DNA of 43,247 nt from Patescibacteria group bacterium. Its GTDB lineage: Bacteria; Patescibacteriota; UBA1384; 2-12-FULL-50-11. Where the stretch lies: the NCBI GenBank assembly GCA_022843855.1, contig JALHMV010000005.1, positions 1 to 43,247 on the forward strand, written 5' to 3'. Within the stretch, counting starts at the first letter, position 1. Each line of letters begins with the position of its first letter. Positions 5,000 to 15,475 of this stretch are shown piece after piece. The notes below the pieces were generated by a model. That model did not search any database and was not told the DNA's origin. It saw nothing but the letters and a program-made list of their open reading frames with translations. Position numbers and translations under genes: made by a program.

Positions 5000-5650
5000 A
5001 TGGGTTTTGCCATTTTTCAGTTTTTGGCCGCTGCTGTGTCGCTCTTTTTTCTCAAATTGTTTACCCGCCTGGAGATTGAGGGTCGCGAACATCTCACGGA
5101 CCTGCCCCGTCGGTTTATCGCAGTCGCCAATCATGAGAGTCACTTTGATCCGCAGCTGGTTGGCGTGGCCCTCATGAGTCGACCAGGCTTGTTCCCTCTG
5201 CGATACATGGCGAAGAACCCGTTGTTTTATATCCCAGGTCTCAACGTCTTGATTTGGTTACTTGGGGCCTTTCGAGCCCATAAAGGAAAGGGGTTGGAAA
5301 AAGCCTTACAGAGCCCCCTGGCGATCCTTGAGGGGAACGGTGCGGTCATCATGTTTCCAGAAGGCCGAATGATTATCGAACGACCCAAGCTGGGCGAAGG
5401 CAAGCGCGGTGCGGCGGTCTTGGCCCTCAAAACTGGGGCGGCGCTGCTGCCGATGTCGATTCATACCCCCCATGACATGCCGCCGGTCATCCCTCTGACG
5501 CTAGGGCGACCCCGCGTTGTGATCCGTATCGGTGAGCCGTTTTACTTAAATAACGTCGATTATCCAGACCTGAGCGATGATAATACGAAGAAGGCGACAC
5601 AAGAGATCATGCGTCGCATCGCCGATCTCTATTTTCAGCACAAGTATTGA
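5000..5650 (+). CDS. plsC: 1-acyl-sn-glycerol-3-phosphate acyltransferase (lysophospholipid acyltransferase family)
   Basis: NHESHFD (HxxxxD), AK..LF and FPEGR motifs. Confidence 0.9.
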   Translation: MGFAIFQFLAAAVSLFFLKLFTRLEIEGREHLTDLPRRFIAVANHESHFDPQLVGVALMSRPGLFPLRYMAKNPLFYIPGLNVLIWLLGAFRAHKGKGLEKALQSPLAILEGNGAVIMFPEGRMIIERPKLGEGKRGAAVLALKTGAALLPMSIHTPHDMPPVIPLTLGRPRVVIRIGEPFYLNNVDYPDLSDDNTKKATQEIMRRIADLYFQHKY

Positions 5651-6331: not shown

Positions 6332-7129
6332 TCAGGCCTTCATGAGGTGATCGGCGGCGCCGTAGCGAGCCGGGCCCCCGATAATGCGAGCATGGCGCTG
6401 GTTGCCGAAGTCGAAGTGCCAAATCTCCTCGGGGTAGACTGTGAAGCCACTTCCTAGCATAAACCTTAGAAGCAGTTCTCGGTTCCGCGCCACTTCCGAT
6501 TCTGGAGCGCCGGTTGGCCAATCTCGACTTCCTGGCCGGAGATGGTAGAAGGCACCGGCCTCTGGCTCCATATAGTCGAAGACCACGCCAAGATCGCACG
6601 GTTGTTCGTCGCGATACAACCAGACATCGGCTGAGCCACCCGTTCGATGGTTGGCCGGTCGGGTTGGATCCTCTGAAGGAAAGGCAACGTAGCGGGTGTT
6701 GGCCCGAATCAGATCGCTGCCCAACGTTCCGCCGAGATTGCTCAGCTTGAGCTCGACCTCGTAACGGGCACACAAGCCCTTGAATTGTTCTCCGAACCCC
6801 AGCCGCGGGGCGGTGTAACGAGCAAGATAGTACCAGAAGAGGACGTCTTGGAGCTTGTTGTCGCGATAGCCGTCGTAGAGCCTGATTGAGTAGCCTTCGG
6901 CTTGAGCTTGTTGATCGGCGTCCACTAACATGCCAAGGACGGTGCGACGAAGATGGGCTATTTTAGGACCCATACCGATTTCCGTGAGGTAGTACGGGTG
7001 AAAGAGAGTCGTCGGAACCTCCACCATTGGCTCGCCGGACTCTTTGATGACGATGTCGCTGAGTTCACAGCGCTTCTCAGCTGCTAAGGTGGTTTCGGCA
7101 GCTCGGGCGAGATCGATGACACCGGACAT
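6332..7129 (-). CDS. D-Ala-D-Ala dipeptidase, peptidase M15D (VanX/DdpX-like)
   Basis: Motifs LYDGYR, NHRTGGSADV (SxHxxGxAxD-type zinc motif) and EEIWHFDFG. Confidence 0.88.
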   Translation of the reverse strand: MSGVIDLARAAETTLAAEKRCELSDIVIKESGEPMVEVPTTLFHPYYLTEIGMGPKIAHLRRTVLGMLVDADQQAQAEGYSIRLYDGYRDNKLQDVLFWYYLARYTAPRLGFGEQFKGLCARYEVELKLSNLGGTLGSDLIRANTRYVAFPSEDPTRPANHRTGGSADVWLYRDEQPCDLGVVFDYMEPEAGAFYHLRPGSRDWPTGAPESEVARNRELLLRFMLGSGFTVYPEEIWHFDFGNQRHARIIGGPARYGAADHLMKA

Positions 7130-7156
7130 AACACACCTTATTGTTAAGGTAGCGAC

Positions 7157-7204
7157 ACTGTAGCAGACTTGCCTACTTCCTTCAATGCTCGAGTCAGCTA
7201 TAAT
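7157..7204. promoter_or_regulatory. Divergent sigma70 promoters for the dipeptidase and ddl
   Basis: Minus: TTGAAG-17nt-TACAGT (7185-7157). Plus: TATAAT at 7199-7204. Confidence 0.55.
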
Positions 7205-7227
7205 AAACAGGTTTGAAAGTAAAAATT

Positions 7228-8304
7228 ATGCAGAATCTCGCAATTATTTTTGGTGGTCGATCGGTTGAGCATGAAGTGTCGGTGGCTTCGGCGAAGAATA
7301 TTCTTGAATCTCTGGATCGAGCGAAATATCAACCCTCTCTTATCTTTATTGATAAGAGCGGCAACTGGCACCTGGTCGAAAATTTAAACCAAGAAGCTCT
7401 CGAACGTTCTAATGAAAAAGCACTTCTCGCGGACGTTTCTCGACCTAATTTAGCTTTTCTTGAGGGTATTGATATCGTCTTCCCGGTCCTGCACGGTCCG
7501 TTCGGAGAGGATGGCACCCTCCAAGGATTACTTGAACTTATGAATATACCTTATATCGGGTCGGGAGTCTTGGGTTCAGCTTTAGGGATAGACAAAGATA
7601 TCGCTCGACAGCTGTTAAAATTTCACAACATTCCAGTCGCCAAGTCACAGGTTATTCGACCCAGTCGCCTCCTGACATTTGAGGAAGTAAGACAAGAGCT
7701 TGGCCTGCCATTTTTCCTCAAGCCCGCCCGGCTTGGTTCGTCCATTGGCACTCACAAAGTCAAAACCGAGCCGGATTTCCACGTTGCCCTGAAGGACGCT
7801 TTTTCCTACGACAACAAGGTGCTGGTCGAAGAGTATATCGAAGGTCGAGAAATCGAGTGTGCGGTTCTGGGCAACGAGAATCCTCGCGCCTCGATTCCTG
7901 GAGAAGTTGTCCCTCACGCTGACTTTTATTCCTATGCCTCCAAATACCTTGACGCTAACGGCACCGACCTTATTGTTGATCCCGATCTAAGTGAAGAACA
8001 GGTGGAAAAAGTTCAGGCTTTAGCTGTTCAAAGCTATCAGATTCTTGACTGCGCCGGCCTAGCACGGGTTGATTTTTTCCTGAGTGGCCAGGGGGATCTC
8101 TACGTTAACGAAATAAACACCCTGCCCGGGTTTACCGCAGTTAGTATGTATCCCAAACTTTGGCAGGAAAGTGGCCTCAATTACAGAGAGCTTATTGACG
8201 AATTGGTCGAACTTGCTCTGGAGCGATTTAAGCAAAAAAGTCGACTAAAGACATCCTATCATGACCCCCTAGTTCCCGATAAAAAAGCGGCGGGGCATTT
8301 TTAA
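7228..8304 (+). CDS. ddl: D-alanine--D-alanine ligase (DdlA type)
   Basis: Motifs FGGRSVEHEVS, LHGPFGEDG, KPARLGSSIG, omega loop FYSYASKY and NEINTLPG. ATG 7228 is preferred over TTG 7213. Confidence 0.95.
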   Translation: MQNLAIIFGGRSVEHEVSVASAKNILESLDRAKYQPSLIFIDKSGNWHLVENLNQEALERSNEKALLADVSRPNLAFLEGIDIVFPVLHGPFGEDGTLQGLLELMNIPYIGSGVLGSALGIDKDIARQLLKFHNIPVAKSQVIRPSRLLTFEEVRQELGLPFFLKPARLGSSIGTHKVKTEPDFHVALKDAFSYDNKVLVEEYIEGREIECAVLGNENPRASIPGEVVPHADFYSYASKYLDANGTDLIVDPDLSEEQVEKVQALAVQSYQILDCAGLARVDFFLSGQGDLYVNEINTLPGFTAVSMYPKLWQESGLNYRELIDELVELALERFKQKSRLKTSYHDPLVPDKKAAGHF

Positions 8305-8384: not shown

Positions 8385-9209
8385 TCAAGGACTTAGCCCT
8401 GATTCTTCTGCGAGTATGAAGGCTTCGTGTCCTATGATCTGTTCTGGTCTAGGGAAGATGATACATGAGTTGGCGGGGGCGATATATTCCTTTCTCCCGT
8501 CCTTGGCGAAAACTGTTCCGGGATCGAGCTTGTCGAAATTCATATACTTCTTGTCGAAATGAAAATTATTTGTTTCCTTTTTGGCAACCATAATGGCTTT
8601 AAGGCGCAACTGTGGTAGTGGTGGCGAAGTGGTTGCTTTTTCTGCTATTCCAAAATAGGCGAGAAAACTAGTAATGGCTTCCATAGCAAATGGGACGTAC
8701 TTTTCGGGTAAATGATTAGAGCCACATTCGAGACAAATACCTATCTTGCCATTCTGATACATGTATACATCTGTCGAACCGGTTGAGACCTCGGAAAGGT
8801 TGGTTATGATTGTACCTGTGCCCAATTCTTTTACGACATCGAGTGAATTACTTTCGCATATAGCAAACGGTCGGTCTTCCTCGCCGTTATACCCATGCAG
8901 GTCCAGTAGTGCGTCACAATCATCTAGGATTAACTTCAACCCCTCGGCCAACTGTTCTTCATAGCTTGCTTTGGGAGCCAGTTGAGGGGTGAAGCATCTG
9001 TTTAAGTTTTTTTCTATAAAACGTACCCCTAATTCAATCGCTTTCGGATTGGCAAATACGAAATGCACCGTCCCTCTCTTCGGCATAAAATCTTCGATAT
9101 ATTTCCGGACCGCAATAATTCCCGCTTTTTCATTTCCATGAACACCGCAAAACACAGCGACTGATGGTCCTGGTATGTCAGAGCGGAATGTATGTATATT
9201 GTTTTGCAT
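8385..9209 (-). CDS. Succinylglutamate desuccinylase/aspartoacylase family (M14) zinc deacylase
   Basis: Motifs GVHGNE, NLNRCF, LLDLH and LECG, plus an AstE-like C-terminal segment (NF..L.PG..FA.DG). Confidence 0.88.
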   Translation of the reverse strand: MQNNIHTFRSDIPGPSVAVFCGVHGNEKAGIIAVRKYIEDFMPKRGTVHFVFANPKAIELGVRFIEKNLNRCFTPQLAPKASYEEQLAEGLKLILDDCDALLDLHGYNGEEDRPFAICESNSLDVVKELGTGTIITNLSEVSTGSTDVYMYQNGKIGICLECGSNHLPEKYVPFAMEAITSFLAYFGIAEKATTSPPLPQLRLKAIMVAKKETNNFHFDKKYMNFDKLDPGTVFAKDGRKEYIAPANSCIIFPRPEQIIGHEAFILAEESGLSP

Positions 9210-9218
9210 TTTGGGTAT

Positions 9219-9245
9219 GGCTGGTCGGGGAGTGCCTGACCAGCC
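9219..9245. other. Intercistronic stem-loop between GNAT and M14 genes
   Basis: GGCTGGTC(GGG)-gagtg-(CCT)GACCAGCC inverted repeat with no U-tract on the coding strand. Confidence 0.55.
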
Positions 9246-9247
9246 AG

Positions 9248-9898
9248 TTAGGATCGCATTCCAATGATGACATATCCGTCCCCTTTGCCGAGCTGGCGAA
9301 AGAGCTGATTGACATCATCGCTTCGGCACGAGATTGAGTCTCCATAGAGGCCATTCCCATATGCCCCCCGGACAATCAGCATCGGGGGATCACTGATTGG
9401 CTTCCCGCCAATTAGCTCAAGGACCTCCGAGGCTGTCTCGAAGATCTCCGTCGGTACTTCCTTGCCATCGACTCCGGGGTAGATTCGGTCAAAGATTCCG
9501 GTGGACCTGATGCCTTGATAGACGCGAGGATTTTGTGTCCTTACGACCATCGCCTCTGAGTCTGCGTGCAGGCACTCGCGGATAAGCCGTTTGTATAGGC
9601 CTTTTCCCTGATGGTTCGGGTCAACGATTGTCCCAACCCGATATGTGATCTTGATCCTCTCAAGGATTAGCTGGCGAATGCCGGCAAATCCTATGATTTT
9701 CTCGTTGTCATCGAAGGCTACGACCAGCTCTTGGTCGGTTTCCGGAAGGCCGAACATGTGATCGGCAGTCTCCTGACGATCGACTCCTTGAAAGACTTGG
9801 CGCACCAGATCGAAGCCACCGTCGAGAAGAGTTTCTCGGCAGTGACCAGTAATATCTGACGCGACGTAACGACGAAGATTGATGTCTGTACTGTTCAT
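9248..9898 (-). CDS. GNAT-family N-acyltransferase
   Basis: Beta strand IIGFAG and acetyl-CoA-binding motif A IVDPNHQGKGLYKRL. Confidence 0.85.
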   Translation of the reverse strand: MNSTDINLRRYVASDITGHCRETLLDGGFDLVRQVFQGVDRQETADHMFGLPETDQELVVAFDDNEKIIGFAGIRQLILERIKITYRVGTIVDPNHQGKGLYKRLIRECLHADSEAMVVRTQNPRVYQGIRSTGIFDRIYPGVDGKEVPTEIFETASEVLELIGGKPISDPPMLIVRGAYGNGLYGDSISCRSDDVNQLFRQLGKGDGYVIIGMRS

Positions 9899-9920
9899 GT
9901 CATCACCGATGTAGGGTACG

Positions 9921-9944
9921 AAAAAACGTCCGGTGACCGGACGT
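9921..9944 (-). terminator. Attenuator terminator in the GNAT leader
   Basis: Minus strand reads ACGUCCGG-UCA-CCGGACGU-UUUUU, 22 nt before the GNAT start. Confidence 0.9.
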
Positions 9945-9969
9945 CTGTGAAATTCACGACAAACCTAGG

Positions 9970-10026
9970 TCACCTGCTGGGACTTGGATTGCGCCACCAC
10001 GCGTTTGCGATGGGTGTGAATTCCAT
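9970..10026 (-). CDS. Trp-attenuator leader peptide MEFTPIANAWWRNPSPSR (TrpL-like, 18 aa)
   Basis: Hand-translated and absent from the ORF track. Tandem TGG TGG followed by Arg. Promoter lies directly upstream; terminator and antiterminator lie directly downstream. Confidence 0.88.
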   Translation of the reverse strand: MEFTPIANAWWRNPSPSR

Positions 10027-10033
10027 ACCTGGA

Positions 10034-10062
10034 ATATTAATACCCAGTGAGTAGGGTGTCAA
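10034..10062 (-). promoter_or_regulatory. Sigma70 promoter of the attenuated operon
   Basis: TTGACA-17nt-TAATAT, 7 nt before the leader peptide ATG (leaderless). Confidence 0.8.
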
Positions 10063-10105
10063 CTGTTTCTTTACGTCAAAGAAGGGGTGAGATAGTCTAA
10101 GGTCA

Positions 10106-10648
10106 ATGTTATTTCTTAAGGCTCGTCCGCGAGTCGAGCGCATTTTAGTCAGTGATGATATTTTCCATAAAGTCGCGCAGATGCGCTATCGAGTGTACTG
10201 CGAGGAAATGGGATTTCTCGAGAAGGACAAATACCCGAAGAAACTTGAGACCGATGAGTACGACGGCAGCTCGATCCATATTGCTGTACTAATTGGCCGT
10301 CGTTTGGCTGGATACGCTCGAGTGATTTTGCCGCGCAATGGGACCCTGCCGATCTTTGAGCACTTTGAGATTCCGCCGGAAGAGGATATTGACGCTTCCT
10401 GTGAGGTATCGCGTTTTATGATTTCTAAGCTTTACCGCCGTAAAACCGAGACGCGTCGGGAGATTTTCCGGCTTTTAGCCGAAGAGATATTGAAGGTTGT
10501 TGAAGAACATCAAGTGAAGAATATCTACGCAGTCGTTGAGGAGTGGCTTCTTAAGAGTCTTCACAAGCGAGGGTATATGTTCGAGGTTGTTGGCGAGGGG
10601 AAGGATTATATGGGCGCGATTACCTATCCGACGAGGCTGGAAAGATAG
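10106..10648 (+). CDS. N-acyl amino acid synthase (FeeM-like) / LuxI-fold acyltransferase
   Basis: QMRYRVYCEEMGF...LETDEYD...GYARVI...LPI...CEVSRF keeps the R, ExDxxD, R and ExSR residues of the LuxI/FeeM superfamily, but has F at the LuxI Trp position. Confidence 0.8.
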   Translation: MLFLKARPRVERILVSDDIFHKVAQMRYRVYCEEMGFLEKDKYPKKLETDEYDGSSIHIAVLIGRRLAGYARVILPRNGTLPIFEHFEIPPEEDIDASCEVSRFMISKLYRRKTETRREIFRLLAEEILKVVEEHQVKNIYAVVEEWLLKSLHKRGYMFEVVGEGKDYMGAITYPTRLER

Positions 10649-10652
10649 ATGG

Positions 10653-10991
10653 ATGGAGGGAATCAATAGCCTAGTCTCTGAAAACATCACCACCGCTAAG
10701 GGATTCGGAGTCATTTACCTCATCACATTTGTGCCAGCATGGGTAGTTGTCTTCATGATAGGGAGAGAGGTTGCTCTTCAGAGAAGCGCTAAGGATCCGC
10801 ATTCGTCAAAGGCAAGGCTACGTAGCCTGATCGCGCTAGAGATTGCAATTCTTGCAGCACCATATATTTATGCCGTTACAGTTGTGCAGAGAGTTCCGTT
10901 CTTGGTTAAAGGCCTCCTGTTCCTACTGCTAATTCTTGTCTTAGTACGTATATACAAGAAGGAAGGGCAAAAGCATCAAGATGTTTTTTAA
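10653..10991 (+). CDS. Small membrane protein (about 3 TM, 112 aa)
   Basis: ATG 4 nt after the synthase stop, three hydrophobic segments, overlaps the next gene start. Confidence 0.7.
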   Translation: MEGINSLVSENITTAKGFGVIYLITFVPAWVVVFMIGREVALQRSAKDPHSSKARLRSLIALEIAILAAPYIYAVTVVQRVPFLVKGLLFLLLILVLVRIYKKEGQKHQDVF

Positions 10992-11688
10992 GAAGTTCCT
11001 CTGGTCAATTTACTCCTTTTGTTACGACGTAATATTGTTTTCGGCACCGCACCGAGCAATGTTCAAGACCATATTGGAGAAGATAGATGGCGAGGGTTCG
11101 TCGTTAGTTCTAGATGTAGGGGCGGGAACGGGGAATCTTGAGTTTCTAGGTAGGAATAGAAGCGTTAAGTTTATTGCCACGGATTTCTCTAGGAGCATGC
11201 TAGCGATTCTTAGGCTTAAGAATCCCAACAGATCGAAAGTTGAGACAATTCTCTGGAACGTAAATTGTGAGCTGCCGGCAGGGGTGGTTCGTGTAGATGC
11301 TATTGTATGCGTTAACGTAATTTTTACGGTAACTGATCTGGAAAGATTTCTTAGGCAAATGTCAAAAACTCTTAAGGAAAGTGGGTCAATATTCATTGTT
11401 TCTCCGCGAAGCAGTTTTTCTATCAGGATGATAGCGAGTGAGCATGTCCGAATGACAATGGCTAGACCTTTCGGGATATTTATCTTGGCCATTCAGATAA
11501 TAGTTTTAGCCATCCCGTTACTGTTGCTGCTAGTGGTTAATCTACTTATCGAGACCCTTTTCTCCAGTGACCAGTACGTATATTTCTCCGAAGGAACCGT
11601 ACAGGACTTACTACAAAAACTTGGCTACTCCGTCACGGTTAACGACGTGCTAGCGGGTCAAGAATACATGGTGATCGGACGCCGCTAA
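10981..11688 (+). CDS. Class I SAM-dependent methyltransferase with a hydrophobic insertion
   Basis: Motifs VLDVGAGTG, ATDFSRSML, DAIVC and LKESG. Hydrophobic stretch IFILAIQIIVLAIPLLLLLVVNLLI. Confidence 0.88.
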   Translation: MFFKKFLWSIYSFCYDVILFSAPHRAMFKTILEKIDGEGSSLVLDVGAGTGNLEFLGRNRSVKFIATDFSRSMLAILRLKNPNRSKVETILWNVNCELPAGVVRVDAIVCVNVIFTVTDLERFLRQMSKTLKESGSIFIVSPRSSFSIRMIASEHVRMTMARPFGIFILAIQIIVLAIPLLLLLVVNLLIETLFSSDQYVYFSEGTVQDLLQKLGYSVTVNDVLAGQEYMVIGRR

Positions 11689-11712
11689 GCGACTCTGTTA
11701 GTATTTATCTAA

Positions 11713-13995
11713 ATGGGAGTTGATTTAGTTGTCTTAGTGCTTTCGAGCGCCCTTGTGCTGACATTGGGAATAACTGCTGTAAGTAATAGGGGTAGTAGCG
11801 CTCATAATCTCTACTTCTTTTTGACAACGTTGTCGATCGTCTTATGGATGGTGACGAACTACGGCGCAAATTCTATTCACGCTTTCACTCTGCTAGTCAA
11901 CAAACTTACTTTTGCTTCAGTTGTTACTGCCGCCTTTTTCCTAACACTGTTTGTACTATCGTTCCCGAAACAGTCAAGTGGCCCGCCTAAGGTGATTAAA
12001 TGGGTCTTTTGCCTGGCCACCATACTCGTACTTGCAGCGGTAGTGAGTACTGATCTCATAGTCAAGAGATACCTAGAAACGCCAACGGGCACAACAATTG
12101 AAACTGGCAAAGGGTTCTGGATTTTCCTCGCATACTTTATACCCGTTATGGTTGGTGCGCTTTCTCACTTAACTTTAAAGCGGAAAGTACTGTCACAGGG
12201 GGAGAGAAAGCAGGTCGATCTGATACTTTTTGGTGTTGGCCTAACGTTCGTGGCAGGGTTAGTCATGAATCTAATTTTGCCCCTTCTCTACGATTCAACT
12301 GTTTTCCTTACCTACACTCCTTACGGAACAGTTTTTTTAGTTGGGGCGATCTTCTATGCCATGATTGCACACGATCTATTTGAGCTTAGAACCTTAGGGG
12401 CTGGCCTCCTCGCATTCGCAATCAACATCGCATTGATTGCTCAAATCTTTGTTTCAAACAGCACCAGCGAGATGGTGCTTAAGATTGGAGTTGAGCTTAT
12501 CGTAGCGATCGGAAGCTACTCCCTTGTTAAGAACATCAATAAAGAAATATCTCGCCGGGAAGAGGTGGAGCGATTGGCGAAGGAGCGTATAGAAACATTG
12601 AAGGAGCTCGAGCAACGCAACAAGAACCTGGCCGCTCTGCAGAAAGTTTCCAAAATGGTTCTCAACCAGATCGAGATGAAGCCGATGATCCAAGCGATTC
12701 TGGACGAGATTCCGAAACAGTTTGATAACTGTACCGGCGCGCTTCTTAATCTTGTCCATGGTGGCCATATGGCTGCCTACGCGATCTCGACGAACGAGTT
12801 TACCAAGAAGGTCACAAGCCTCGTCGGCGACGATCTAGAGAAATACAGCTATCCTATCAAACCCGGCTTCAACCTTTTACACGACACGCTTATTAGCAAG
12901 CAGATTAAGGAGTCGACGAAACTCAGTGACTTCATCTGCCCCCCAATCACCAAGCCGGTGGCGGCGACGATCCAGACGTTAGTCGGAATTAAGTATACTC
13001 TGGCCGTTCCGTTGTTTGCCGGCAAAGAACCGCTCGGTGTGATGCTGTTCTCCTATCGCGTTCCCAAGAGTGAGCTGCTCGAAAAAGATCTTGATATGGC
13101 TGTGGCGATTTCGGACGAAACCAGCTTGGCCATTCAGCGCGCCTACGCCTTCCAGCAGCTTAAAGATGCCAACGAGTACCTGGCTGATCTGGATAAGCTG
13201 AAAGACGAATTTATCTCGATCGCTTCCCACGAACTCAATACACCGTTGGCAGCTGTCGAAGGCTATCTGTCGATGATTCTCGATGAGAACATGGGCAAGG
13301 TCGACGACAAGGCCCGAGTGTATCTAACCCGCGCCTACGACTCGAGTAAACGATTGGCGGAGCTGATTTTGGACTTGCTCAATGTTTCTCGCATCGAACA
13401 AGGCCGAATCAAGATGAAGTTTGCCAAGACTAACCTGTACGATTTGGCAGAGAGCGTTATGCACGAGCTTCAAGTAAAAGTTGACGCCAAGAAGCTGACT
13501 CTGAAACTGGAAGGCGATCGTAAGAGAGTACCGCAGACCTGGTGCGATCCCGATCGGATCCGCGAGGTGATTGTTAACCTGGTTGGTAACGCCATCAAGT
13601 ACACAGAAAAAGGCGGTATCCGAATGCGTATCAGCGAGGATGCCGGCCGTATCAAATTTGAAGTAATCGACACCGGTCGAGGTATCTCGGCCGAGGGCCA
13701 GAAGAAACTCTTCCAAAAGTTCTCTCAAGTTAAGCGAGAGATTGACGAGCAAAAAGGAACGGGCTTAGGCCTCTACATCAGCAAAAACTTTGTCGAACTC
13801 CATAAGGGTCGGATTTGGGTTGAGTCCGAAGAGGATAAGGGATCTGACTTTATCTTTGAGCTGCCGCTCCTGACCGAACCGCCAGAGAAGATCGAAGGGG
13901 CGATCCTGGAAGGGCCGTTGTCGGCGCCGCAGATTGAGCGGCGCAACCCGCTGGAAATACCGACGGCGATCAAAGAATCGGCTAAGAAAAATTAG
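11713..13995 (+). CDS. Sensor histidine kinase: N-terminal 7TM-type membrane domain, GAF, HisKA, HATPase
   Basis: About 270-aa multi-TM N-terminus, GAF (LAVPLF...LGVM), H-box ASHELNTPL, N-box NLVGNAIKYT, DTGRGI and GTGLGL. Confidence 0.93.
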   Translation: MGVDLVVLVLSSALVLTLGITAVSNRGSSAHNLYFFLTTLSIVLWMVTNYGANSIHAFTLLVNKLTFASVVTAAFFLTLFVLSFPKQSSGPPKVIKWVFCLATILVLAAVVSTDLIVKRYLETPTGTTIETGKGFWIFLAYFIPVMVGALSHLTLKRKVLSQGERKQVDLILFGVGLTFVAGLVMNLILPLLYDSTVFLTYTPYGTVFLVGAIFYAMIAHDLFELRTLGAGLLAFAINIALIAQIFVSNSTSEMVLKIGVELIVAIGSYSLVKNINKEISRREEVERLAKERIETLKELEQRNKNLAALQKVSKMVLNQIEMKPMIQAILDEIPKQFDNCTGALLNLVHGGHMAAYAISTNEFTKKVTSLVGDDLEKYSYPIKPGFNLLHDTLISKQIKESTKLSDFICPPITKPVAATIQTLVGIKYTLAVPLFAGKEPLGVMLFSYRVPKSELLEKDLDMAVAISDETSLAIQRAYAFQQLKDANEYLADLDKLKDEFISIASHELNTPLAAVEGYLSMILDENMGKVDDKARVYLTRAYDSSKRLAELILDLLNVSRIEQGRIKMKFAKTNLYDLAESVMHELQVKVDAKKLTLKLEGDRKRVPQTWCDPDRIREVIVNLVGNAIKYTEKGGIRMRISEDAGRIKFEVIDTGRGISAEGQKKLFQKFSQVKREIDEQKGTGLGLYISKNFVELHKGRIWVESEEDKGSDFIFELPLLTEPPEKIEGAILEGPLSAPQIERRNPLEIPTAIKESAKKN

Positions 13996-14064
13996 ACTTA
14001 GCCCTAGTGCCGTTATCGACCATGGCGGCAGCAGAAACTTGTCGTTTAACATAGGTATTTAAGT

Positions 14065-14090
14065 ACGGCCCCGATGCCTATCGGGGCCGT
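14065..14090. terminator. Hairpin between the convergent kinase and microprotein genes
   Basis: ACGGCCCCGAT-gcct-ATCGGGGCCGT perfect 11-bp stem. Confidence 0.7.
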
Positions 14091-14093
14091 GGG

Positions 14094-14204
14094 TCAGTCC
14101 TCTTCTTCAGAGTCTTCGTCAAGCAGACACTCGTCGCTGCCGCAATCATGGTAGCCCAGATCGCAGCGAACGCAATCACACTCGCAGGTTCCTGCTTCTG
14201 CCAA
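14094..14204 (-). CDS. Cys-rich acidic microprotein MAEAGTCECDCVRCDLGYHDCGSDECLLDEDSEEED (36 aa)
   Basis: Hand-translated. GGAGG lies 7 nt before the TTG start, TGgTATAGT extended -10 at 14260-14252, and a hairpin begins 3 nt after the stop. Confidence 0.72.
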   Translation of the reverse strand: MAEAGTCECDCVRCDLGYHDCGSDECLLDEDSEEED

Positions 14205-14267
14205 TCGGTTGCCTCCAGATGGATTAACGGTATTGTCGTACCGCCGCGGCCACTATACCATCACGAT

Positions 14268-14852
14268 ATGTTGCCAATCAATGATCGGCGTTTTATGACA
14301 CTATCCAGCAGAAAGACAGTTCCGTTACTCACGAAAGAAAAAATTCGACTTCTCGAGGCAGCTGATTGTCTGAATAGTATCGAAAAAGTCCGTCTTCTAG
14401 CCATACTGGCAGGCAAGCGTTGGCTGACTGAAGTGAGTATTCGCAAAGACGGAAGCAGCCACAACATTAGCGTGACAGATCTTCTGGATGATCTGGGTCT
14501 GGCCTGGATCGATGAGTGTTATACGAAGAAGGATGGCACAAGAGTCGATTGGATAGAGGTCGGAGCCAACGCAGCGGTGATCGAGTACATTACTCTGAAT
14601 CGCCATACCCTTAGTGTTTTGGAAGCTGGTGTTCTTTATGGCTATCCTGTTACAGCAGTATTGGCCGCCAGTGGCATTCTGAACGAAAAACGGAAGCGTG
14701 TTCGTGAGAAAACTACGGCCCAAAGATGTTTGGGGGGGATCTTCTCAAGCGACAATGAGAAGGATGAGGAGCGTTTCCTAGAAGAGCAGTGGCAGGCTCT
14801 ATCCCGGATCACTAAAGAGATAGTCTCGGAGGCGACGCTTCATTTGGGCTAG
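14268..14852 (+). CDS. Hypothetical protein (about 194 aa)
   Basis: Long ORF. Start moved to ATG 14268 (TACCAT 6 nt upstream), which avoids overlap with the microprotein. Confidence 0.65.
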   Translation: MLPINDRRFMTLSSRKTVPLLTKEKIRLLEAADCLNSIEKVRLLAILAGKRWLTEVSIRKDGSSHNISVTDLLDDLGLAWIDECYTKKDGTRVDWIEVGANAAVIEYITLNRHTLSVLEAGVLYGYPVTAVLAASGILNEKRKRVREKTTAQRCLGGIFSSDNEKDEERFLEEQWQALSRITKEIVSEATLHLG

Positions 14853-15040
14853 TTCATCCGCAGCGTTTATGCTGGACTAGATGAAGCCTGGAATGGTGAT
14901 CTGCTTTACGTCCACAAGCAGTGACGCGAAGCGTTAAACGCTGATGACATTCAGAGCGCATTGAGCTACTTAGTCGGCCAAACAAGCTAACCTCGAAGCT
15001 TTCTTGTATTTTTGTGCTGTTTTGTTACGGTTAACCCATA

Positions 15041-15475
15041 ATGTCTGAATCATTTAAGAGTATCTTGTTAGTTGACGATGACCTGACGCTGCGCGAGATG
15101 TATTCGGAGCGGCTCAAGGCGGAGGGATTTGTGGTCGAGATGGCCAGGGACGGAGAAGAGGCGCTCTCTAAGGCCGCCGAGATGCACCCCAATATTATTC
15201 TTCTCGATATCATGATGCCCAAGATCAACGGGCTCGATGTCTTAAAGAAGCTGCGCGAACAAGAAGAGACAAAAGCGATTCCGGTCATTGTTCTGACGGC
15301 CTTGATCCAGGATCGGGAAAAAATGGAGAGTATTACTCGCGGTGCTGATGACTATATCGTCAAATCTGAGACGATGCCCGGTGAGGTCATCCAAAAAGTC
15401 AAAGATCTCCTCGAGAGAGGTCCGAAACCTTCCGAGGGTACGACGGCCAATCCGCCGTCAGCTGCCGCTGCCTAG
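15041..15475 (+). CDS. Single-domain response regulator (receiver only)
   Basis: ILLVDDD, LLDIMMP (phospho-Asp), VIVLTA and GADDYIVK. No output domain. Confidence 0.92.
   Translation: MSESFKSILLVDDDLTLREMYSERLKAEGFVVEMARDGEEALSKAAEMHPNIILLDIMMPKINGLDVLKKLREQEETKAIPVIVLTALIQDREKMESITRGADDYIVKSETMPGEVIQKVKDLLERGPKPSEGTTANPPSAAAA

Follow-up and report, generated by a model that had tools for sequence, protein, structure and literature searches.

A putative make-and-sense locus with an exchangeable synthase and sensor cassette in a Saccharibacteria genome

The stretch of DNA analysed here, 43,247 nucleotides of contig JALHMV010000005.1 (hereafter the window), belongs to a Saccharibacteria genome (Patescibacteria, or Candidate Phyla Radiation, CPR) of 855 kb with a completeness of 95%. 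Its + strand carries a four-gene operon for an N-acyltransferase of the LuxI/FeeM fold (the synthase), a membrane protein with three transmembrane segments (the 3-TM protein), a class I methyltransferase dependent on S-adenosylmethionine (SAM) and a sensor histidine kinase with a seven-transmembrane (7TM) domain, followed by a gene for a stand-alone receiver (Table 1). We lean, by a modest degree, toward reading these + strand genes as an autoinducer-like make-and-sense module of a kind widespread in Patescibacteria. Two lines of evidence carry this reading: the synthase gene has a kinase gene close by in many Patescibacteria families, and in the window's own family the upstream enzyme genes and the sensor-coding part of the kinase gene were found to be replaced together. 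CPR bacteria live as obligate epibionts and have minimal genomes; to our knowledge, no CPR signal molecule has been identified, and how these bacteria sense kin or hosts is largely unknown. The locus is compact, consisting of four genes plus the receiver, and the comparative support for the pairing of enzyme and sensor is unusually strong.

Table 1. Features of the two divergent operons and of the receiver gene (positions in the window; aa, amino acid residues)
Feature	Position	Strand	Basis
Synthase, LuxI/FeeM-fold N-acyltransferase, 180 aa (predicted)	10106-10648	+	Pfam, NCBIfam, AlphaFold 2 model, PDB fold and profile matches
3-TM membrane protein, 112 aa, putative methyltransferase partner	10653-10991	+	Hydrophobic segments, homology to the transmembrane domain of L012
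Class I SAM-dependent methyltransferase, hydrophobic helix at residues 168-186	10981-11688	+	Pfam Methyltransf_25/11/23
Sensor histidine kinase, 760 aa	11713-13995	+	HisKA_7TM aa 8-225, GAF 411-476, HisKA 497-564, HATPase_c 612-719
7TM sensor domain, hypervariable part of the kinase	11734-12387	+	Identity contrast and incongruent trees
Open reading frame (ORF) of 234 aa, no known family, between kinase and regulator	14148-14852	+	No Pfam or NCBIfam match
Stand-alone CheY-like receiver, presumed kinase partner	15041-15475	+	Pfam Response_reg only
Sigma-70-type promoter, TTGACA-17-TAATAT	10034-10062	-	-35 hexamer kept in G010
Leader peptide, 18 codons, tandem Trp codons 10-11	9970-10026	-	Sequence
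Intrinsic terminator, 10-bp stem, 3-nt loop, U-run	9918-9946	-	Folding; 5' arm and loop alternatively pair with 9968-9974
GNAT acetyltransferase (Acetyltransf_7/1), 216 aa, first gene of attenuated operon	9248-9898	-	Pfam
AstE/AspA-family zinc deacylase, 274 aa	8385-9209	-	AstE_AspA_cat 79.2 bits, hybrid domain 25.6 bits (Pfam cut-off 25)

Gene layout and conserved adjacency of synthase and kinase

The four genes of the operon are spaced by 4, -11 and 24 nt, and their ORFs, domains and spacing agreed with a preliminary description of this DNA, which had drawn a tight operon of synthase, 3-TM protein, methyltransferase and 7TM-GAF kinase; the GAF domain corresponded to GAF_3 of Pfam. The start of the 3-TM gene, which had been placed there inside the synthase gene, was corrected to the ATG at 10653. 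The receiver-only regulator that the same description had noted about 1 kb downstream was recovered at that distance 3' of the kinase gene and nine bases before murA, its product consisting of the receiver domain alone, and the absence of LuxR was borne out genome-wide, no Autoind_bind (LuxR-type) domain being found in the 95%-complete genome. Left unmentioned between kinase and regulator was the 234-residue ORF, which probably stands outside the module and for which the best Atlas score was 0.83 (a lead only). The interval between the kinase and receiver genes is an insertion site: it holds this ORF in the window's own genome (G000), pheS-pheT in G008 (L013:13413-16410) and nothing in G009, a genome of the same genus as G000.

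The conservation of this layout was surveyed in 162 genomes of the class, in the window's family (18 genomes) and in a phylum sample of 401 Patescibacteria genomes. The A1 profile of the synthase detected it in 7 of the 162 class genomes and the broader A3 profile in 21 of the 401 phylum genomes. The comparison covered 28 synthase loci, nine from the class and 19 further ones from the phylum sample; two divergent synthase copies, L020 and L021, were found by Pfam while kinase loci were being annotated. Scans of genome contigs returned one locus with the single synthase protein and three loci with the A1 profile, and a scan of metagenome contigs with the A1 profile returned five (four of less than 3 kb, and one with its match 860 nt from the contig end), which were excluded from the counts.

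A kinase was encoded within two genes of the synthase in 25 of the 28 loci, which come from many Patescibacteria families. At class level, a homologous kinase lay within this distance and on the same strand in eight of the nine loci. Among the 19 loci from the phylum sample, 17 had a kinase within two genes, 16 of these with a HisKA_7TM match; L037 has an adjoining GAF-HisKA-HATPase kinase without a HisKA_7TM match in Pfam, the contig of L040 ends 1.2 kb past the synthase gene, and L052, a weak partial match, showed no kinase. The co-occurrence across Patescibacteria that the preliminary description had put forward as a check was thus found for synthase, methyltransferase, kinase and receiver, and its proposal that these genes make up one functional module is supported by this co-occurrence, by the gene fusions at L041 and L012, and by the co-inheritance of the sensor domain with the enzymes. 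At L035:7554-8943 (G329), two stand-alone ORFs with only a HisKA_7TM domain (225 and 236 residues) were seen upstream of the synthase gene, besides a full kinase of 940 residues.

Apart from this kinase, the genome encodes a single histidine kinase. The HisKA and HATPase_c domains of the window's kinase together with a syntenic receiver qualify the pair as a two-component system. The receiver gene directly follows the kinase gene at L011, L014, L015, L020, L025, L026, L042, L044, L046 and L048, and in the window's family it always precedes murA, with pil (pilus assembly) genes near. The three response regulators of the genome (C5:15041-15475, C1:47794-48141 and C27:5302-5637) are encoded by ORFs of 132-146 residues and comprise the receiver domain alone; no DNA-binding response regulator was found in the genome. 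Since all three receivers are short and lack a DNA-binding domain, the output would be conveyed through protein contacts. As for the sensory half of the kinase, its N-terminal 480 residues matched no NCBIfam family, and an assignment as PrsK-like was dropped on this ground.

Joint exchange of enzymes and sensor domain on a conserved kinase core

In the window's family, 16 kinases were compared along with their upstream sets, defined as whatever immediately precedes the kinase gene in the same orientation (Table 2). Between kinases with different upstream sets, the 7TM domains were about 20% identical even where the remaining kinase was nearly identical. The window's kinase and that of G009 were 21% identical in the 7TM domain and 89% identical in the DHp+CA part, and G012 and G013, again two genomes of one genus with different sets, were 22% and 98% identical, respectively. 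Pairs from different genera that have the same upstream set gave 53% for the 7TM domain and 73% for DHp+CA (G009 and G008), and 47% and 74% (G012 and G018). The maximum-likelihood tree of the 7TM domains recovered ((G000,G010),(G009,G008)) with support of 98/98, (G012,G018) with 99/99 and (G013,G016) with 100/99, while that of DHp+CA joined G000 with G009 (100/99) and the four genomes of genus g8 with each other (100/99). These identities and incongruent trees indicated that the enzyme set and the sensor domain have been exchanged as one block, with a breakpoint within the kinase gene. As read from the sequences, the kinase core, the regulator and murA form a fixed chassis in the window's family, and the upstream enzymes and the 7TM domain form an exchangeable specificity cassette. 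Between G000 and its sister genome G010, which share an upstream set, the identities were 87% for the synthase, 30% for the 3-TM protein, 36% for the methyltransferase, 69% for the 7TM domain, 91% for the GAF domain and 95% for the GNAT protein of the divergent operon.

Table 2. Upstream sets of the 16 kinases compared in the window's family
Upstream set	Genomes
LuxI/FeeM + 3-TM + methyltransferase	G000, G010
LuxI/FeeM + ThiF-like	G009, G008, G005
ThiF-like alone	G006
BioF/Kbl/CqsA-family alpha-oxoamine synthase	G001, G012, G014, G018
Methyltransf_20 protein	G002, G003
PaaK-like ligase + ThiF-like + Acg-type nitroreductase	G013, G016
Unknown gene	G007
Contig begins at kinase	G011

The G+C content drops to 0.42-0.45 over 10600-12600, that is, over the 3-TM gene, the methyltransferase gene and the 7TM-coding part of the kinase gene, compared with about 0.50-0.55 in the flanks and 0.50-0.52 in the part encoding the cytoplasmic portion of the kinase. 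This low value is compatible with a foreign cassette, although the codon usage of membrane proteins is a confounding factor. The same G+C profile, with the same confounding factor, and the many unrelated enzyme types in the slot would also be expected of a recombination hot spot, a site upstream of a conserved kinase that takes up unrelated accessory genes having no functional tie to it. We regard such a hot spot as highly improbable, since the kinase stays near the synthase in loci from many families of the phylum and the replaced segment repeatedly extends into the kinase gene itself, over the 5' part that encodes the sensor. Meanwhile, contigs from wastewater (four runs of one study, labelled RNA-Seq but probably DNA) matched 8385-10638 and 13305-15475 at 95-100% identity; one of them, X3 (record 18), departs from the window at 10638, ten bases short of the synthase stop codon, and the absence of coverage of 10640-12600 by these contigs at ≥95% identity counts as no evidence.

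In the agr and comQXP pherotype loci of Firmicutes, which direct peptide signalling, hypervariable genes that make or modify the signal and a hypervariable sensor part of the kinase lie between conserved flanks. The window locus shares this layout, and differs in that the exchange involves entire classes of enzyme rather than allelic versions of a single enzyme. A farther-reaching interpretation, which we put forward as speculative and rather unlikely in this full form, is that of a plug-in communication locus of Saccharibacteria and other Patescibacteria, with the kinase core, the stand-alone receiver and murA as its fixed part, in which synthesis cassettes (LuxI/FeeM with methyltransferase, LuxI/FeeM with ThiF-like adenylase, the CqsA family, or PaaK-like ligase with ThiF and nitroreductase) and the matching 7TM domains would be swapped between strains, creating private, pherotype-like channels. 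Host-derived acyl groups would be used in it, because the cell lacks an acyl carrier protein (ACP) or coenzyme A (CoA) pathway. If true, the swapping of cassettes would mean that the specificities of signal and receptor evolve through the exchange of whole modules.

In other Saccharimonadia (L016:3589-8926, L017, L018, L019 and L029), the kinase gene is preceded by genes for a ThiF-like protein, a transporter of the major facilitator superfamily (MFS) and a ligase of about 515 residues distantly like PaaK and F390 synthetase, and these genes make up a recurrent four-gene block without a FeeM-like gene. Just upstream of the kinase gene at L058:1738-5493 and L060:466-5488 lie genes for three proteins: a PaaK-like ligase, a ThiF-like protein and an Acg-type FMN nitroreductase. 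In the Rv1355c family, the ThiF-like protein of these two loci has its match in the N-terminal half and the nitroreductase in the C-terminal half, so that the trio looks like a split Rv1355c-like enzyme.

Predicted chemistry of the module and its alternatives

The synthase was matched by FeeM (PF21926) at 31.7 bits, above the cut-off of 27, and by Autoind_synth (PF00765) at 17.8 bits, under the gathering score of 24, which some relatives passed (L039, 43.2; L020, 39.8). The strongest curated family match was TIGR03694, the N-acyl amino acid synthases linked to PEP-CTERM, with 98.5 bits against a cut-off of 111.95; the relatives at L014 (122.8) and L015 (116.8), both adjoining a 7TM kinase, exceeded it. 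An AlphaFold 2 model built from 22 relatives (pLDDT 92.9) gave as its top folds in the PDB the acyl-homoserine lactone (AHL) synthases BjaI (E 3e-10, TM-score 0.76), TofI, RpaI, LasI and MesI, with the FeeM structure at rank 25 (TM-score 0.62). Against PDB sequences, the A1 profile found BjaI at 6e-6 and did not find FeeM at E ≤ 1. In alignments of 22 and 16 sequences, R27, Y31, F37, D50, D53, R72, E100, S102 and R103 were invariant or nearly so, and the conserved residues from R27 to R103 aligned with counterparts in BjaI. These positions are those of the LuxI signature, whose two aromatic sites, usually F and W, are Y and F here. By its predicted fold and the arrangement of its catalytic residues, the enzyme belongs to the LuxI/FeeM group, within which SAM and a free amino acid as acceptor are indistinguishable from sequence.

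The synthase thus stands beside two known enzyme types. With the LuxI-type AHL synthases, represented by the CoA-dependent BjaI and RpaI, it shares the fold (TM-score 0.71-0.76), BjaI as the best PDB sequence match, and the aligned residues R, D, D, R and E-x-SR; it differs from them in falling under the Autoind_synth cut-off, in its shorter length, in having a membrane kinase in place of LuxR, and in a genome in which no ACP or CoA route was found. With FeeM and the N-acyl amino acid synthases (NAS), it shares the PF21926 match and TIGR03694 as strongest family; it differs in missing the cut-off of the latter, in the low rank of the FeeM structure, and in that neither an exosortase (Exosortase_EpsH) nor an ACP, which FeeM uses, was found in the genome. 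The C-terminal end of the synthase, some 15 residues long (10600-10648 in the window), occurs in two forms in the A1 alignment. Among the five loci with an identified third gene, the form 'YMGA.TYP' goes with the methyltransferase (window, G010 and G006) and 'YMNT.NYP' with ThiF (G009 and G008).

The best Pfam match of the synthase was Acetyltransf_5 (PF13444, 46.7 bits), a family which contains OlsB as well, and the synthase at L014 weakly matched OlsB models (21.8 and 20.3 bits). This points to envelope lipid remodelling as an alternative, in which an OlsB/OlsG-like route would supply a (methylated) aminolipid to the cell's own membrane, and the 7TM kinase would monitor that membrane and signal to cell-wall and pilus functions without any diffusible signal. 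The transmembrane helix of the methyltransferase and its 3-TM partner, the constant place of the regulator beside murA and near pil genes, and the presence of the kinase without a synthase in most genomes are likewise in its favour, as are PlsC-type acyltransferases encoded 5 kb from the window's synthase and beside the synthase at L048. It was nevertheless considered unlikely: the OlsB scores are far under the model cut-offs of 320-350, the enzyme has only 180 residues and is structurally nearest to AHL synthases, the alternatives in the slot (CqsA family, PaaK-like ligase with ThiF and nitroreductase, MFS exporter) suggest synthesis and export of a small molecule, and a joint replacement of enzymes and sensor at strain level would be unexpected for a housekeeping lipid.

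The 3-TM protein was homologous to the N-terminal transmembrane domain of a fused 3-TM::methyltransferase protein (L012:10160-11188; BLASTP 9e-7) and to the product of a small ORF that lies between the synthase and kinase genes at L035, with G17, F18, Y22, T25, P70, Y71 and Y73 invariant. The methyltransferase subfamily of the window adjoins synthases at L001, L012, L037, L038 and L040, and at L041:6743-8047 a member of it is fused to the synthase in a methyltransferase::synthase protein of 434 residues; the A3 search for longer fused synthase forms yielded none among 8000 candidates, which is weak evidence. The AlphaFold 2 model of the methyltransferase (pLDDT 89.6) contained a long helix at residues 165-193, and five of eight aligned methyltransferases had in common an N-terminal motif and the position of a hydrophobic helix. 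Its fold search returned generic class I enzymes (the C-methyltransferases CysG and BelI, CmoM and a phosphatidylethanolamine N-methyltransferase), which did not indicate the methylated atom. Of the 28 synthase loci, 13 had a gene for a ThiF-like adenylyltransferase as their third gene, seven had one for a class I methyltransferase, and eight had neither.

Under the make-and-sense reading, the synthase would N-acylate SAM or a free amino acid, in either case an amino-acid-type acceptor, as its fold and conserved residues suggest. The membrane-anchored methyltransferase and the 3-TM protein would then methylate the lipophilic product at the membrane, most plausibly on a free carboxylate, which would give a neutral, membrane-soluble ester; the carboxylate is favoured because the methyltransferase alternates at one position with a ThiF-like enzyme, and ThiF-like enzymes adenylate carboxylates. 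The 7TM domain of the co-transcribed kinase would sense the product in or at the membrane, to judge from the adjacency of the genes and the co-replacement of enzyme and sensor, and the kinase would in turn phosphorylate the receiver encoded at 15041-15475, to judge from their conserved synteny. Once phosphorylated, the receiver would act by protein contacts, murA and the pilus assembly genes being its conserved neighbours.

Whether the product is a signal at all bears on a further alternative, namely that an N-acyl amino acid, or its ester, is secreted by this epibiont as an antibiotic, surfactant or host effector, and that the kinase, instead of reading cell density, senses the host or environment, or the compound itself for self-protection. 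MFS and SemiSWEET-like transporters are encoded in sister cassettes, and N-acyl tyrosines from NAS genes change biofilm composition (PMC7293339). We assign this possibility a low probability: the window operon has neither an exporter nor an immunity gene, and the sensor domain is tightly co-inherited with the enzyme type, which suggests that the kinase reads the product.

Several other genes were observed beside synthases. SemiSWEET-like (MtN3_slv) ORFs of 88-95 residues lie next to ThiF or synthase genes at L014:8427-8708, L022:7948-8214 and L012:9220-9507, two of the three being 45% identical, and may be exporters or importers. Radical SAM proteins flank the synthase and 3-TM::methyltransferase genes of G006 (L012:7039-8420 and 11355-12665). 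Genes for aromatic aminoacyl-tRNA synthetases adjoin the synthase gene in three lineages (L011:10291-11307, L013:7456-8679 and L015:5230-6465), and on motif reading only, that of G009 (L011) would be a paralogue of tryptophanyl-tRNA synthetase (TrpRS), 36% identical to the G000 TrpRS on C31, and those of G008 and G102 would be like tyrosyl-tRNA synthetase; these neighbours may be a coincidence or a hint at the substrate. In addition, decarboxylase-type genes (AdoMet_dc, ornithine/diaminopimelate decarboxylase and LOG/lysine-decarboxylase-like) stand directly beside the synthase at the phylum-level loci L044:7767-8228, L049:5630-6772 and L051:5163-6005, which hints that some synthase versions acylate an amine, not an amino acid.

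A number of observations weigh against the make-and-sense module. Its product, ligand binding and phosphotransfer are predictions. The N-terminal 480 residues of the kinase have homologues in 91 of the 162 class genomes and in 17 of the 18 family genomes; compared with the distribution of the A1-type synthase, this means that the kinase works without this synthase in most relatives and, being far commoner, is not dedicated to one chemistry. In G006, the class exception, the synthase and the fused 3-TM::methyltransferase are encoded on one contig and the kinase and a ThiF-like gene on another. Even within the family, the 7TM domains of G001 and G014, linked to the alpha-oxoamine synthase, failed to group with the other two linked to it. 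In a phylum-wide 7TM tree of 23 rows, the methyltransferase-linked kinases were not clustered (three changes, a value reached or undercut in 98 of 500 shuffles), and the ThiF-linked kinases clustered weakly (14 of 500 shuffles), an outcome confounded by kinship. Physical linkage alone could explain in part why the 7TM-coding portion was transferred along with the genes upstream of it. The regulator has no output domain, and the regulated target is thus not nameable. Finally, searches of the 95%-complete genome detected neither a PP-binding (ACP) domain nor an AMP-binding ligase nor CoaE, which leaves the usual acyl donors without a visible source.

The supply of acyl groups to a LuxI/FeeM-type acyltransferase is accordingly a metabolic puzzle. 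SAM supply is accounted for by MetK, which is present in the genome, and the acyl donor may be host-derived. The genome's only PlsC-type acyltransferase lies at 5000-5650, upstream of the synthase.

The synthase and kinase pair itself is not new to the phylum. The preliminary description had called the system undescribed; in Bernard et al. (2020, mSystems; PMC7567580), 36 LuxI homologues at the level of hidden Markov models were already reported in CPR, 18 of them adjoining a putative sensory kinase, along with 51 CqsA homologues beside CqsS-like kinases, and complete quorum-sensing systems were proposed in silico. The CPR LuxI homologues of that report carry aromatic substitutions at the F29 and W35 positions (PMC7567580). 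Its LuxI/kinase pairs likely represent the synthase family of the window. The parts available make no mention of a methyltransferase or ThiF third gene, of fusions, of a kinase chassis or of cassette swapping, and no description of third genes, fusions, a shared chassis or cassette exchange was found in searches of the open-access literature. What appears to be new here is a conserved kinase chassis on which synthase and sensor are exchanged as one cassette.

Comparable circuits exist elsewhere. In the CqsA/CqsS and LuxM/LuxN circuits, too, a synthase gene lies beside that of a polytopic kinase feeding a receiver, and in sister genomes the chassis carries a member of the BioF/Kbl/CqsA family, to which the autoinducer synthase CqsA belongs. 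The window locus differs from these circuits in its HisKA_7TM and GAF sensor, in a kinase that is not a hybrid, and in a receiver without a known relay. The PhcB/PhcS system of Ralstonia likewise pairs a SAM-dependent methyltransferase with a sensor kinase, which perceives a fatty-acid methyl ester made by the former, that is, a neutral lipophilic methyl ester. The likeness is one of arrangement; in contrast to PhcB, the window methyltransferase follows an N-acyltransferase and is predicted to be membrane-anchored.

The divergent tryptophan-attenuated operon

On the - strand, divergent from the synthase operon, the genes for a GNAT acetyltransferase and an AstE/AspA-family deacylase follow a promoter and a leader (Table 1), and the Trp-attenuated arrangement of the preliminary description was confirmed in its promoter, tandem-Trp leader, terminator and antiterminator. 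When the RNA was folded with the region masked as by a ribosome stalled at the Trp codons, 9968-9974 paired with 9932-9938 to form the antiterminator; when it was masked as by a ribosome at the stop codon, the terminator formed. The -10 hexamer ends 7 nt before the leader ATG, and the leader mRNA is therefore probably leaderless. From leader to GNAT gene, the sequence was 100% identical in G010, and the promoter spacer differed; the attenuator is known from these two identical sequences only, which precludes a covariation test. The short tandem-Trp leader, terminator and mutually exclusive antiterminator are those of a trp-type attenuator, which controls trp biosynthesis; that of the window controls a GNAT protein and a deacylase and has no Rfam match, as a scan of the whole window gave none at the gathering score. 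A search for the leader motif matched only copies of the G000 and G010 loci.

The preliminary description had further linked both arms through tryptophan: an N-acyl-Trp would be made, methylated and sensed, and when Trp is scarce, the GNAT and AstE arm would hydrolyse it for its Trp. The attenuator is convincing, the arms are divergent neighbours in G000 and G010, and AstE/AspA enzymes are annotated as a family of N-acyl amino acid hydrolases. We nonetheless see scarcely any likelihood in this two-arm model. The GNAT protein was present in 2 of the 162 class genomes, and AstE, in 13 of them, is distributed independently of the synthase, as it occurs in the synthase-less family genomes G001, G013 and G016 and went undetected in four of the seven genomes that carry the synthase (G006, G008, G051 and G102). 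Synteny of the two arms recurred only in the one sister genome, G010. In G009, the AstE gene is separated by about 5 kb from that of the synthase and by about 7 kb from that of the kinase, and inspection by eye showed no Trp leader ahead of either the AstE homologue or the TrpRS paralogue there. Trp as the acylated amino acid is otherwise unsupported, the neighbouring attenuator being the sole pointer to it.

We read the GNAT and AstE operon instead as a separate, recent acquisition that answers to Trp-tRNA supply and lies outside the signalling module. The GNAT protein had only three relatives among 5.8 billion clusters, and its Atlas search returned generic GNAT clusters only. All NCBIfam equivalogs for AstE scored far below their cut-offs, so that a substrate was not assignable. 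Just upstream of the AstE gene, at 6332-8304, genes for a VanX-like D-Ala-D-Ala dipeptidase (M15) and a D-Ala-D-Ala ligase were observed as divergent neighbours.

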